Shown: positions 6,286 to 15,813 of the stretch, one piece after another
Layout of the letters: each line of letters opens with the position of its first letter
Position numbering within the stretch: the first letter of the stretch is position 1
Source: Opitutales bacterium
GTDB lineage: Bacteria; Verrucomicrobiota; Verrucomicrobiia; Opitutales; UBA9783
DNA: 27,430 nucleotides
NCBI GenBank assembly: GCA_017479315.1
Contig: JAFVCI010000002.1
Span: 1 to 27,430, forward strand
Direction: 5' to 3'
The notes under the pieces: generated by a model
Told to the model about the DNA's origin: nothing
The model's database searches: none
The model's input: the letters and a program-made list of their open reading frames with translations, nothing else
Made by a program: the position numbers and the translations under genes

Positions 6286-7328
6286 CGGAACGCTTCAAAC
6301 CGAGCATTTCGTTACCGCCGGCGTACGTACACCTGGGGAACGTCTGGCGCAAACCGTTGCCGTTTAAGTATCGGGAAAACGAATGTTTCTTCAAAATCGG
6401 CGGCTGTCAAACCTTCACGCGCGGCGCGGTATTAAGTTATATTTGGAGAGAAAAAACCGTCTACTTCTTCGCGCCCGAACAGGGTTTGTGCGAATTTCTG
6501 GAGCCCAAATTGGCGGGGCTGGACATCAATGCGCTCGGGAAAGAGTTTTTAAATTTATTTCTGGAAACGTTGCGCGAGGATATTTGCGGGATTTTTCTGC
6601 AATTTCATGAAACTTTAAAAATTCGCGAAAGCCACTGGAGCATTCAAACCATTCCGAACACCCTCTATTTCGATTGGTACAACGCCGAAAAGAACCTTTA
6701 TCGCCTGTACATTATCGAAGACGGCGACAATGCCGCACCGCAACTGATGGAGAAAATTTATCAAAAGAACGGTTCTTCGGAAGGCTTGAACGGCAATGCG
6801 TGCATTTTCCCGTTCCGCTTATTGACGGGGCAGGCGCGTTTGACGGTTGAAGAACTCAAATCGCTGCGCGTCGGGGACATTATCTTGTCGCAGACACCGC
6901 GCAATCGCGTCAAATTTTACTGCGGGAAAGCCGTGTTTTTTGCCGAAAAGAAGGAACAACAATTTTGCGTTACCGGTTTGCTTATGGAAGAAGAAAATCA
7001 TGATTTACCCGTCGGTGTCATGCCCGACGACGATGCCGAATTATCCGAGCTCGAAGGTGATAATGCGCTTGCCGAAGGATCGGCGGAACCCGAAAAAGCC
7101 GCGTTCCCGATGGAACAACTGCCCGTGGTGATTGCCTTCGAAGCGGGCAAAAAGGAAATTACCTTCGAACAGCTGCAACAGGTGCACGAAGGTTACACGT
7201 TTGAATTGGACCAAAAGCCCGACGAACAGGTGCAAATTCTGGCGAACGGGCACTGCATCGGACAGGGCGAGTGGGTCCAAATCAACGACCGCCTCGGCGT
7301 GCGCATCACGCACTTATCGCTTAAATAA
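6282..7328 (+). CDS. sctQ: T3SS cytoplasmic ring protein SctQ (YscQ/HrcQ)
   Basis: Two SPOA-type segments (FRLLTGQARLTVEELKSLRVGDIIL and LPVVIAFEAG...ILANGHCIGQGEWVQINDRLGVRIT). ATGA overlap with sctP. Confidence 0.92.
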   Translation: MTERFKPSISLPPAYVHLGNVWRKPLPFKYRENECFFKIGGCQTFTRGAVLSYIWREKTVYFFAPEQGLCEFLEPKLAGLDINALGKEFLNLFLETLREDICGIFLQFHETLKIRESHWSIQTIPNTLYFDWYNAEKNLYRLYIIEDGDNAAPQLMEKIYQKNGSSEGLNGNACIFPFRLLTGQARLTVEELKSLRVGDIILSQTPRNRVKFYCGKAVFFAEKKEQQFCVTGLLMEEENHDLPVGVMPDDDAELSELEGDNALAEGSAEPEKAAFPMEQLPVVIAFEAGKKEITFEQLQQVHEGYTFELDQKPDEQVQILANGHCIGQGEWVQINDRLGVRITHLSLK

Positions 7329-7373
7329 TGAACGCTTAAATAGTGAAGCCCTAAACCCGCAAAGCCGCTTCCC

Positions 7374-8153
7374 ATGCCGGACACGAGCCCTTTCATCTAC
7401 GATTCCGCCGGGATCATGATCCTGCTCGTAACGTTGGCACTCGTGCCGTTCGTTGCGATGATGGTCACGTCCTTCATTAAACTGGTGGTGGTGATGAATT
7501 TGTTGCGCCAGGCAATGGGATTGCAACAGGTTCCGCCGAACATGGTGCTCAACGGCTTGGCGATTGTTTTGACAATTTACATCATGGCACCGACGTTGCA
7601 GGAAAGCATTCAACGCGTTACCGAAGCCAATACGGTACTTGAAAATCGGAAAGCGCACCCCGATACCTTCAAACTGCCGCCGTCTATGCAACCGTTCGCA
7701 AAAAAGCAAAGTTCCGATTGGCTTGCCAATTTATTTCCTGCGGCGCAAACGGTTCGAAACAAAGCGGACGAACTCGGGGCGATTTTTAATTACGTCAAAC
7801 AACCGCTGACGGACTTCTTAACCAAACATTCAACCCCGAAACACAACGCGTTTTTCAAGTCCATCGCCAAGAAATTATGGCCGAAAGCCTATTTGGAAGA
7901 TTTGGACGATTCAAGCTTATTGCTTATCGTTCCGTCGTTCGTTTTGTCCGAACTAACCGCGGCATTTGAAATCGGATTTCTGATTTATTTGCCGTTTATC
8001 GTCATCGATTTGGTGGTTTCGAACGTTCTGCTCGCCATGGGCATGATGATGGTCTCGCCGATGACCATTTCGCTGCCGTTCAAACTGATGCTGTTCGTAC
8101 TCGTCAACGGCTGGGATAAAATCGTCGAAGCGTTGGCGTTGACGTACCGATGA
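7374..8153 (+). CDS. sctR: T3SS export gate protein SctR (YscR/FliP family)
   Basis: LALVPFVAMMVTSFIKLVVVMNLLRQAMGLQQVPPNMVLNGLA, SELTAAFEIGFLIYLPFIVIDLVVSNVLLAMGMMMVSPMTISLPFKLMLFVLVNGW. Confidence 0.97.
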   Translation: MPDTSPFIYDSAGIMILLVTLALVPFVAMMVTSFIKLVVVMNLLRQAMGLQQVPPNMVLNGLAIVLTIYIMAPTLQESIQRVTEANTVLENRKAHPDTFKLPPSMQPFAKKQSSDWLANLFPAAQTVRNKADELGAIFNYVKQPLTDFLTKHSTPKHNAFFKSIAKKLWPKAYLEDLDDSSLLLIVPSFVLSELTAAFEIGFLIYLPFIVIDLVVSNVLLAMGMMMVSPMTISLPFKLMLFVLVNGWDKIVEALALTYR

Positions 8154-8284
8154 CATTCGTCGGATGTTAAGAAATAGATTGCGAACTTTTATTCAACAAA
8201 ATCCGACTGACTCAAATTTTCCGCGCTAAAAACACTTGACATATTGCTTTATGATCATCCCGATGATTTTGAGGGAGAAATGCC

Positions 8285-8524
8285 ATGAAGGGTAAATGTT
8301 TCGTATTAGGGATTGTGACAGCGGTTGTTGGAAAGTCGATTTGCTTTGCGGATTATGTTGCGGAGCAAATTGTTCATCCGCGAACGGGACAGCAGACGGT
8401 CTTTTGGGGAGATGCCTCAAAAGGGAAGGACGCTTACATCGTCAGTTACGACGAGAAGAGTCAAAAATTTTATCTCGAAAAAATCGAGAAAAACAAACCG
8501 TCCTCGAAAAGCGATTCCGAATAA
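8285..8524 (+). CDS. Small hypothetical protein with putative Sec signal peptide (79 aa)
   Basis: SD GAGGGAG ending 7 nt before the ATG. MKGKCFVLGIVTAVVGKSICFA/DY resembles a signal peptide, followed by a polar beta-rich body. Lies inside the hairpin-rich region, so it could be spurious. Confidence 0.55.
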   Translation: MKGKCFVLGIVTAVVGKSICFADYVAEQIVHPRTGQQTVFWGDASKGKDAYIVSYDEKSQKFYLEKIEKNKPSSKSDSE

Positions 8525-8958
8525 CCCGACAACATCTCGGTTCGGTTGAACTCAACGCAACGGTCTGCGCACCGTTTGGGTGTTGTTGGATGGGCAAGTC
8601 TGCTCAAACAAGGCGACAGTCGGTTTTTGACGATGTTCCGTAGGCGTTCTCGTCCTCATCGTTAGTTACGGTGAGAGGGTGTGCGTCTGCCTCGCCGGAA
8701 GGGGAAGGATAGCCTCTTTGTCGAGGATGAAGATAAAGAAAGTTGCCGTGTTTCAGCTCAAACGAGCACAATACGGCGGTTGTGTGTCTCGCAAAACCGA
8801 TATTTCGCAAGTCTGCGGTATCGGGGTGTTGGGACACGCCGTTGTTTTATAGTAACAGAACGATAAACCCGGATGCCGTTCGGATTGGTTTATCGGCAGA
8901 AATTTATCCGAAGCAGGTGTTTTCGGTCGGTTTTTGTGTTTTTTCCGACTGAATTTTT
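8337..8958 (+). ncRNA. Candidate large structured RNA of unknown family (boundaries approximate; may start near 8255-8280)
   Basis: At least 12 near-contiguous stems found by eye, many with G-U pairs that form only on the plus strand. Examples: 8337-8351/8358-8372 (15 bp, 5 G-U), 8400-8409/8415-8424, 8526-8537/8578-8589, 8741-8752/8770-8781, 8782-8791/8830-8839, 8861-8869/8887-8895. Loop motifs repeat and the region ends in a terminator-like hairpin. Confidence 0.6.
8922..8958 (+). terminator. Possible intrinsic terminator closing the structured region
   Basis: 9-bp stem ttcggtcgg (8922-8930) / ccgactgaa (8945-8953) followed by ttttt. The loop is long (14 nt, T-rich), which is atypical. Confidence 0.4.
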
Positions 8959-9020
8959 GGTACGTCGCGGCGGATTTTGATTGTATTTTTACGAAAAGCG
9001 GTTTTAAATCGGGCAAACAG

Positions 9021-9431
9021 GTGGCAACTCCTAAGATAGGTCAGTGGTTTGAAAAGCAGGACTTCGGTCTGTTGCTGTTTCGCGTGCTTTTCGGGATCTG
9101 CCTAACGGTACACGGTGTGTGTTCGTTACGTAGCGGAGTGGCGTTAAAACACCTCGGCGAGGCGGCAACTGCCGTCGGTCTGCCGTTTTCGAGTGTATTT
9201 TGGGGCATTGTCGCTGCACTTTTGCTGATCGCCTGCGGAATTTTTACCATCCTGGGCTTTTATTTTCGATGCGCCATGGCAACCGTTCTGGTCATGGGAC
9301 TCATCGGCGCATGGCAACGGATGTCGCTCGCGTTCTTTTTTGTCTCGCCATACGCGCCTTCGGCGTTGATGATGTTCATCGGTCTGACGTTTCTGTTCAT
9401 CGGTTCGGGGCGTTTTGGCGTAAAAAAATAG
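9021..9431 (+). CDS. DoxX-family membrane protein
   Basis: Likely GTG start at 9021 (MATPKIG). DFGLLLFRVLFGICLTVHG, several TM segments and a C-terminal LFIGSGRFG are typical of DoxX. Confidence 0.75.
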   Translation: MATPKIGQWFEKQDFGLLLFRVLFGICLTVHGVCSLRSGVALKHLGEAATAVGLPFSSVFWGIVAALLLIACGIFTILGFYFRCAMATVLVMGLIGAWQRMSLAFFFVSPYAPSALMMFIGLTFLFIGSGRFGVKK

Positions 9432-14861: not shown

Positions 14862-15108
14862 AATCTTGCAACGATTTATATCGCATACTACGCGAGAATG
14901 CTCCTCACGGAAGAGGCGATTTTGGGTTGTTGCATTGAAAAGTTTTTAAAGTACGCCGTTGCGGTGAAGCACAGTGCTTTCTTTTAAAAGATACTTTTTT
15001 ACCCCACCGAACCGAAGTCCATCAAAACACAAAAACCTTTGAGCCGCTGAAACCGGAGAAAAAACCAAGGACTACGCACTAACAGACGTGAATTGTGTAA
15101 AAAAACGC

Positions 15109-15142
15109 AAAAAAACACACGCACGGTAAAAAACAACCGCGC
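15109..15142 (-). terminator. Probable intrinsic terminator downstream of rpmG
   Basis: On the minus strand a 7-bp stem gcgcggt/accgtgc (plus 15136-15142 / 15121-15127) lies about 30 nt after the rpmG stop, followed by gtgtg and T-tracts. Confidence 0.45.
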
Positions 15143-15169
15143 CACCCTTACCGGACAACCAACCGCCCC

Positions 15170-15340
15170 CTACCCTTTAATCTCTTTATGCAGGGTGCGA
15201 CGGCGCAAGAACGGATTGTACTTCATTTTTTCGACTTTTTCCGTCTGCAATTTCTTATTGCGCGTCGTCATGTAACGTGAAGGAGGCTTTCCTTCTTTGC
15301 GTGCTTCGGTGCATTCAATAATTACGGTTTCCCTGGGCAT
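15170..15340 (-). CDS. rpmG: 50S ribosomal protein L33 (56 aa)
   Basis: Manual translation gives [56 protein letters not shown], with the L33 pattern RY.T.RNKK...KYNP.LRR.TLH.E. Below the ORF-track size cutoff. Confidence 0.95.
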
Positions 15341-15466
15341 GCTTTATAAAGAACGCATTTTTGTCTTTGTTTCAAGATAAAAATACCGCATCCGTCACCA
15401 AACGTGAAAAGGGGCGTTTTTATGGAACAATCCGAAAACGCCCCAAACGTCTTGAGCTCCGCAAAA

Positions 15467-15748
15467 CTAGAAGGCACTGTAGCCGTTACGGGCATCTTCT
15501 TCCTGTTGCTCACGGATCTGCTTCTGCATGTCCTGGGTGTAGCGACGCTGCGAAGCGATCATTTGGTCAAACATGTAGCGCATATTGGACTCTTTCATTT
15601 TTTGGCGACGCTCCTCGAACGTTAACGGCTTTACGTCGGTCTGCGCCAAGGCGTTTTGTTCGGGAACGTTTCCCGAAACGGGAACTTCGGGTTCCAAGGC
15701 GGGCATAGCCGACGGCATATAACAGTTGTTGACGGATGAGATGGACAT
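15467..15748 (-). CDS. Small hypothetical protein (93 aa); possible T3SS substrate
   Basis: Likely start ATG 15748 (MSISSVNNCYMPSAMPALEP...). Ser/Pro-rich N-terminus and Q/E/M/R-rich helical C-terminus. Fills the gap between rpmG and the divergent GlmU-like gene. Confidence 0.65.
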   Translation of the reverse strand: MSISSVNNCYMPSAMPALEPEVPVSGNVPEQNALAQTDVKPLTFEERRQKMKESNMRYMFDQMIASQRRYTQDMQKQIREQQEEDARNGYSAF

Positions 15749-15813
15749 AGGTTTTTGAATTTGACTGTTTCTCTCGTATATCGTACGTTTTTTGTGTTTC
15801 ATTCGTTGTTTTT

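Follow-up and report, generated by a model that had tools for sequence, protein, structure and literature searches.

The interval between the type III secretion gene sctR and doxX in this gut Opitutales genome contains a gene for a conserved small secreted protein (8285-8524, plus strand), followed by a noncoding, hairpin-rich spacer that has been replaced and expanded in a single lineage and whose excess folding is real and unusual. The reading of this spacer that we favor, with roughly even confidence, is that it forms a lineage-specific 3' untranslated region (UTR) belonging to the small gene, with an intrinsic terminator at its end and the doxX promoter beyond. The original prediction had treated 8337-8958 as a candidate large noncoding RNA, either a relative of MISL or the founder of a new class. 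One third of that array turns out to be a protein-coding gene, and the outcome as a whole corrects the MISL or new-class lead.

Genomic setting and the small secreted-protein gene

The window, by which we mean the whole 27,430-nucleotide stretch of DNA that was analyzed, is contig C53 of an 853-kb metagenome-assembled genome that is 77% complete (G000), and its sequence is present in bovine, sheep, and goat gut metagenomes. Upstream of the spacer, Pfam identifies sctN, sctP, sctQ, and sctR, the last of these (7374-8153, plus strand; FliP family, PF00813, E = 1e-65) closing an sctN-O-P-Q-R run. Downstream lies doxX (9021-9431, plus strand, with GTG as its start codon), and tig, clpP, and clpX come after it (Pfam DoxX, Trigger factor, CLP_protease, and ClpX); the exact 136-amino-acid doxX product is also called on a different contig. 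In Ysc-type loci, sctS and sctT come directly after sctR. Here the export-gate genes of the injectisome are split, with sctR in the window and sctS and sctT on contig C43 (G000:C43:3902-4905). A degenerate sctS or sctT in the sctR-doxX gap was considered and set aside because both genes are intact on C43 and the window contains no match to either at E ≤ 1.

The gene at 8285-8524 encodes a 79-amino-acid protein with a predicted N-terminal signal peptide. Its stop codon lies at 8522-8524, and a GAGGGAG ribosome-binding site precedes the gene. Homologues found by tblastn are 89% identical in G002 and about 40% identical in G004, both of the same genus, and 50 to 51% identical at the amino acid level in four genomes of other genera; throughout this set, they lie directly upstream of doxX-tig. 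The mature part of the protein is almost invariant (…HPRTGQQTVFWGDASKGKDAYIVSYDEKSQKFYLEKIEKNKPS…), while the core of the signal peptide is variable. Contigs from two RNA libraries carry variants of the gene, and these fall exclusively at third codon positions (8410, 8413, 8419, 8422, 8425, 8431, 8434, 8437, and 8440). The family forms 19 clusters in the protein database, all of them without a name, and searches of Pfam and the Atlas gave no match. The protein is conserved throughout this family of gut Opitutales with reduced genomes and is found only there. We conclude that 8285-8524 is a real gene for a conserved small secreted protein. As a separate observation, the roughly 40% identity of the G004 copy is to be set against identities of 94 to 98% in the neighboring genes.

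All 13 of the hairpins listed in the original prediction fold in G000 about as they were described, among them those at 8337-8372 (15 bp, with 5 G-U pairs), 8526-8589 (a 12-bp closing stem around two inner hairpins), 8861-8895 (a 9-bp outer stem), and 8922-8958 (9 bp with a 14-nt loop). The interval is not, however, the nearly empty sctR-doxX gap for which it had been taken. A conserved open reading frame (ORF) covering the first 190 nt of the array had been overlooked, and the hairpins at 8337-8372, 8377-8388, 8400-8424, 8439-8451, and 8473-8489 sit inside the coding sequence. The first of these spans the variable signal-peptide end of the gene and weakens in relatives, its energy going from -16.6 in G000 to -12.3 in the related locus L021 and -4.5 in another, L022.

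The stretch between sctR and the small gene (8154-8284, plus strand) is presumed from its sequence to hold the promoter of the small gene along with the ribosome-binding site. Three near-identical contigs, L012, L013, and L014 (2,177, 2,177, and 524 nt aligned to the window, respectively), differ from the window at 11 sites, and all 11 lie within 8148-8275. The differences are mostly A/T transversions, and three are common to L012 and L013. Either a promoter region that varies among strains or a patch of recombination may account for this.

Turnover of the spacer upstream of doxX

The 496 nt between the stop codon of the small gene and the doxX start codon at 9021 are noncoding. Their hairpin-rich part (8525-8907, plus strand), the candidate 3' UTR, contains main hairpins at 8526-8589, 8640-8690, 8715-8739, 8741-8781, 8782-8839, and 8861-8895. 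Elsewhere in the genus, the same interval measures 275 to 290 nt (G002, G004, L016, L024, and L029), about 335 nt (L018), or about 165 nt (L019), and in other genera it is 84 to 100 nt. The other spacer types of the genus do not align with that of G000, although the flanking genes are 84 to 92% identical, and the types are mutually unalignable apart from those of G002 and G004. Similarity between the G000 and G002 types picks up again only in the last 40 nt or so upstream of the doxX start. By BLAST, the G000-type spacer is absent from 20 other genomes of the family, 4 of them congeneric and 16 not. The spacer has been replaced and expanded in the G000 lineage.

This spacer type is not an assembly artefact, because four independent assemblies carry it at 99.6 to 100% identity. 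Two diverged carriers are also available: L021 is 86.3% identical to G000, and L022, which has the same sequence as L023, is 93.1% identical. Relative to G000, L021 has indels of +1 and -6 nt and L022 one of -5 nt, which break every ORF in the spacer, so that no conserved ORF remains there. A pseudogene or hidden ORF was rejected on the same grounds and because Pfam matches none of the five longest ORFs. The spacer is also not a repeated element: BLAST found no second copy in the 77%-complete genome, and its 11-mer counts (2.2, against a window mean of 2.4) are not raised. An origin in a phage or plasmid was discarded because the phage and plasmid collections searched contain no match. Decay from a duplicate of the small gene was not adopted as an explanation; one 20-nt match at 85% identity links 8437-8456 with 8657-8676 (E = 0.02 in a tiny search space), and nothing around it is collinear.

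In the G004-type spacer (L016:173-336 and L005), we observed an 84-nt tandem duplication with 71% identity between its copies, which is further evidence of structural instability upstream of doxX in this genus.

Folding strength and comparison with known RNA families

The predicted excess stability of 8337-8958 over dinucleotide shuffles was borne out on both strands. Minimum free energies (MFE) were -225.8 kcal/mol on the plus strand (z = -5.96, 20 shuffles) and -179.4 kcal/mol on the minus strand (z = -5.30, 20 shuffles), and 100 shuffles gave z = -4.88 and -3.64, respectively. For the noncoding part alone (8525-8960, 100 dinucleotide shuffles), z was -4.10 on the plus strand and -2.18 on the minus strand. 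When the whole window was scanned with sliding 300-nt windows, 8551-8850 on the plus strand had the lowest z of 182, with neighbors also below -3. A genome-wide control of 394 ORF-free 300-nt windows had a mean z of -0.57 (standard deviation, 1.35), and the plus-strand windows starting at 8304, 8454, and 8604 ranked 16th, 10th, and 12th in it, outranked by tRNA clusters, one 16S fragment, and a few spots that lack annotation. Among the diverged carriers, spacer z values were -5.1 (plus) and -3.7 (minus) in L021 and -2.5 and -2.6 in L022. The spacers of sister lineages reach only +0.7 to -2.0, and we therefore rejected the idea that these conserve the structure without the sequence.

The abundance of G-U pairs had been taken as a sign of selection on plus-strand RNA. 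This argument does not hold, since G-U pairs account for 15.4% of all pairs in the MFE structure of 8525-8960 and for 19.7 ± 2.6% in composition-matched shuffles; the G-U richness is compositional, the plus strand being rich in G and T, and is no evidence for such selection.

Nine other low-z regions of the genome were examined. Five contain tRNA clusters or a 16S fragment, and four, including one on contig C35, have no Rfam match. Of all ORF-free windows in the genome, the C35 region (G000:C35:1003-1303, minus strand; L041) is the most structured (z = -5.8). Downstream of a gene end, it has two to three strong hairpins in tandem, and after these comes the same TTTTTGTGTTTTT tract as occurs in the sctR-doxX interval; it is probably a strong terminator region. 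Within the window itself, the sliding scan gave further plus-strand z values of -4 or below at 15151-15600, 7051-7350, and 151-600. The first of these lies within a 950-nt region (14862-15813) that has no long ORF, tRNA, or Rfam match.

No Rfam family accounts for the folding. A cmscan of the whole window against Rfam 15 (4,227 families) gave no matches at the gathering score, and at E ≤ 10 the segment 8100-9100 gave only a chance snoRNA match of 14 bits. The Rfam models without a match include MISL, ROOL, GOLLD, OLE, HEARO, raiA, RNase P, tmRNA, SRP, 6S, and the riboswitches, and ARAGORN found no tRNA or tmRNA.

MISL is a large, many-hairpin RNA from Verrucomicrobia. The spacer resembles it in its run of hairpins and in its source, the window being from an Opitutales genome, and differs in lacking a match to the Rfam model even at E ≤ 10, in its length of about 430 nt, and in being confined to three close lineages. 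The comparison with MISL, an Rfam family (PMC10925082), was made by covariance model. With no Rfam match, a single locus, and covariation not above chance (see below), the spacer is neither a recognizable MISL relative nor, on present data, a new class. ROOL was first seen in rumen metagenomes, and both ROOL and GOLLD have conserved, covarying multidomain folds that occur in many genomes. The likeness lies in large structured RNA and in an organism that is also found in rumen and gut metagenomes; the spacer, however, has no Rfam match, no covarying fold, and no wide occurrence. REP, BIME, and MITE elements, which are present in many copies per genome and share a common consensus, resemble the spacer in being imperfect palindromes placed between genes after a gene end, and here, too, both strands fold better than chance. 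In contrast to such elements, nothing in the spacer is repeated elsewhere in the genome, and its hairpins are unlike one another.

A proposed structured 3' UTR

Long 3' UTRs made of tandem stem-loops stabilize mRNA or insulate, and they are sources of 3'-UTR-derived small RNAs. Several properties of the spacer match structured bacterial 3' UTRs: it follows a stop codon immediately and lies on the coding strand, has mostly independent hairpins in series and no ORF, and ends in a hairpin and U-tract before the next promoter; it also varies among close relatives, with constraint only near the terminator. It differs in size: its length of about 420 nt is far above the usual and exceeds that of its own 240-nt gene.

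On this reading, transcription of the small gene would start within 8154-8284, and the plus-strand transcript would run on through the hairpins, so that 8525 to about 8945 would serve as a long 3' UTR. Transcription would stop at an intrinsic terminator at 8908-8945, composed of a hairpin and UUUUUGUGUUUUUU, and the last 60 to 70 nt of the spacer would carry the doxX promoter. The hairpins, which would form no single defined architecture, could serve in a generic way to block 3' exonucleases and might also insulate, keeping transcription of a gene linked to the type III secretion system (T3SS) out of the housekeeping operon.

The terminator scan lends support to the proposed 3' end. Terminator-like hairpins at 8908-8926 and 8922-8958 are accompanied by an interrupted U-tract, TTTTTGTGTTTTTT (8908-8958 in all, plus strand). 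The other plus-strand sites that the scan returned were 8825-8840 and 8869-8883, and it found no convincing terminator earlier after the stop codon of the small gene. The U-tract motif occurs at 12 sites in the genome, about half of them after a hairpin, and the minus-strand gene end at C35:1003, with its tandem strong hairpins and identical U-tract, has the same design. The 8908-8958 block is 94% and 91% conserved, compared with 79% at fourfold-degenerate sites, and its hairpin is kept in all three carrier lineages. The conserved region that follows (8959-9020, plus strand) is the presumed promoter and 5' UTR of doxX-tig-clpP-clpX.

Conservation across the spacer points in the same direction. 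As a neutral reference for G000 and L021, we used the fourfold-degenerate sites of five flanking genes, which are 78.7% identical (288/366). Against this reference, 8525-8700 (79.4% identity) is neutral, 8701-8860 (86.2%) is somewhat more conserved (P = 0.05), and 8861-9020 (93.8%) is strongly so (P = 7e-6). Only the last 160 nt, the end with the terminator and the doxX promoter, are thus clearly constrained.

RNA-library contigs cover 8291-8582 (X15) and 8280-8533 (X17), that is, the gene and up to 58 nt of the spacer, and in other RNA runs 6 to 22% of the sampled words of 8590-8985 are present. Four metatranscriptome contig sets have no contig over 8596-8979, although contigs show presence only and such gaps prove nothing. 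A small RNA from the minus strand was considered, given a weak promoter-like site at 9008-8980, but folding on that strand is weaker and no terminator follows.

In favor of a structured 3' UTR, then, are a real gene, a spacer that turns over, plus-strand folding, a terminator-like end, constraint that rises toward the 3' side, a second gene end of the same design, and RNA contigs that extend into the spacer. Against it stand the lack of contigs over 8596-8979 in the four metatranscriptome sets, a length unusual for a 240-nt gene, better-than-chance folding of the minus strand as well, and a need, in one lineage only, for which there is no account. A z value near -4 also requires a cause, and the source of the hairpins lacks an explanation if particular pairs are not selected. 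The part of the original prediction that allowed for an extremely structured UTR is the one we retain; the part that proposed a MISL relative or a new class, for which there is neither an Rfam family, nor recurrence, nor covariation above chance, is not supported.

Is the structure under selection?

Comparison of the three carriers bears on two further readings of the spacer. One, possible but on balance unlikely, is that it is relic DNA: a lineage-specific insertion or replacement, such as the remnant of a mobile or duplicated element, that was born with strong inverted repeats and is now in near-neutral decay. Only the 3' terminator and promoter part would then be functional, and any transcription would be incidental. 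The neutral rate of 8525-8700 fits this reading, as does the loss of structure among relatives. The hairpins at 8640-8690, 8741-8781, 8782-8839, 8861-8895, and 8922-8958 are kept in G000, L021, and L022, but those at 8526-8589 and 8715-8739 are already lost in L021, and the 5-nt deletion in L022 takes out an inner stem. Paired positions evolve no more slowly than unpaired ones (0.163 versus 0.109). Pairs are also broken about as often as expected when the observed substitutions are re-placed at random on positions with the same base: L021 shows 14 broken pairs against 14.3 ± 2.5 expected, and L022 shows 6 against 7.6. The minus strands, too, fold better than chance (z = -2.2 to -3.7), which makes inverted repeats at the DNA level possible, and the quick turnover of the spacer in the genus, including the tandem duplication described above, would suit a relic.

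The relic reading nevertheless has to contend with the lack of repeat copies in the 77%-complete genome, of recognizable terminal inverted repeats or a target duplication, and of any phage or plasmid match, as well as with the above-neutral conservation of 8701-8860. Neutral decay would moreover imply an ancestor with a z of -7 or lower, which would itself need explaining. The MFE of L021 is also 20 kcal/mol better than that of G000 when its 62 substitutions are introduced there at randomly chosen sites (0 of 200 replicates as good), in a test that is biased toward significance and that overstates decay if both sequences descend from a structured ancestor. L022 shows no significant effect of this kind, and we did not accept MFE retention as proof of selection.

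The second reading, which we consider unlikely, is a new, lineage-restricted structured noncoding RNA, a multihairpin sponge or scaffold that might be processed out of the 3' part of the small-gene transcript and have a link to expression of the T3SS or of secreted proteins. Plus-strand z values of -4 to -5 in both G000 and L021, stronger than those of the minus strand, agree with it, and over its full length the spacer exceeds fourfold sites in conservation (86.3% versus 78.7%, P = 0.004). In L021, two double compensatory changes (A-U to G-C and G-C to A-U) fall in the outer stem of 8640-8690, where L022 has G-U replacements that pair only on the plus strand. Two loop or mini-hairpin motifs, CATCGT-YAGTT-ACG and GCA-AGTC-TGC, are each present twice, and parts of the spacer appear in RNA libraries.

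Taken as a whole, the substitutions do not show the covariation expected among homologues. In L021, the pairs kept by one-sided change, kept by two-sided change, and broken numbered 23, 4, and 14, compared with 22.1, 1.8, and 14.3 expected under random re-placement, and in L022 they numbered 13, 0, and 6, compared with 9.6, 0.4, and 7.6. The four two-sided changes in L021 are not clearly beyond the 1.8 that chance would give (P about 0.1), there is no depletion of broken pairs, and the structures of the other lineages gave the same result. Covariation contributes -2.2 of -139.8 kcal/mol in RNAalifold. No covariation above chance was found in this comparison, which, with three sequences, has low power. 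A noncoding RNA is further disfavored by the absence of an Rfam family, the unenriched G-U content, the neutral 5' 176 nt, and the lack of an RNA contig over 8596-8979 in the four contig sets (presence-only data). It is also confined to one locus in three close lineages, with the 4 congeneric and 16 other family genomes lacking it. A covariance model of 8741-8895, built from three sequences with 55 pairs, was run against 150 Opitutales genomes and recovered itself and one further match at E = 0.02 per genome, which is expected by chance.

A more specific version, which strikes us as less probable still, is that the spacer is a young, lineage-specific multihairpin RNA, about 400 nt long, which either forms the 3' end of the mRNA for the T3SS-adjacent secreted protein or is cleaved from it, and that selection acts on the number and stability of its hairpins and not on particular pairs. 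Such selection would explain strong folding without detectable covariation, and the RNA might act, for example, as a protein-binding sponge or decoy through its repeated YAGUU and AGUC loops.

Least probable of all, and by our estimate very improbable, is a cis-regulatory 5' leader of doxX-tig-clpP-clpX (an attenuator or RNA thermometer, with 8922-8958 as attenuator or operator): the most conserved block, 8861-9020, does lie directly upstream of doxX, with a 9-bp inverted repeat, a 14-nt spacer, and a U-tract, and the downstream genes are stress and proteostasis genes, but other genera manage with 84 to 100 nt, the spacers of sister lineages are unrelated, no riboswitch, leader, or thermometer family matches, and the bulk of the hairpins lies 100 to 500 nt upstream of the conserved block.

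Implications

As it stands, the spacer is best read as an ordinary structured 3' end and is a modest curiosity; were it a functional RNA, it would be an example of the very recent birth of a structured RNA. The secreted 79-amino-acid protein encoded beside doxX-tig-clpPX is arguably a more useful annotation than the run of hairpins that drew attention to the locus. What the comparison adds for these reduced-genome gut Opitutales is the very fast turnover of one intergenic site, at which a 430-nt run of hairpins was gained in a single lineage.
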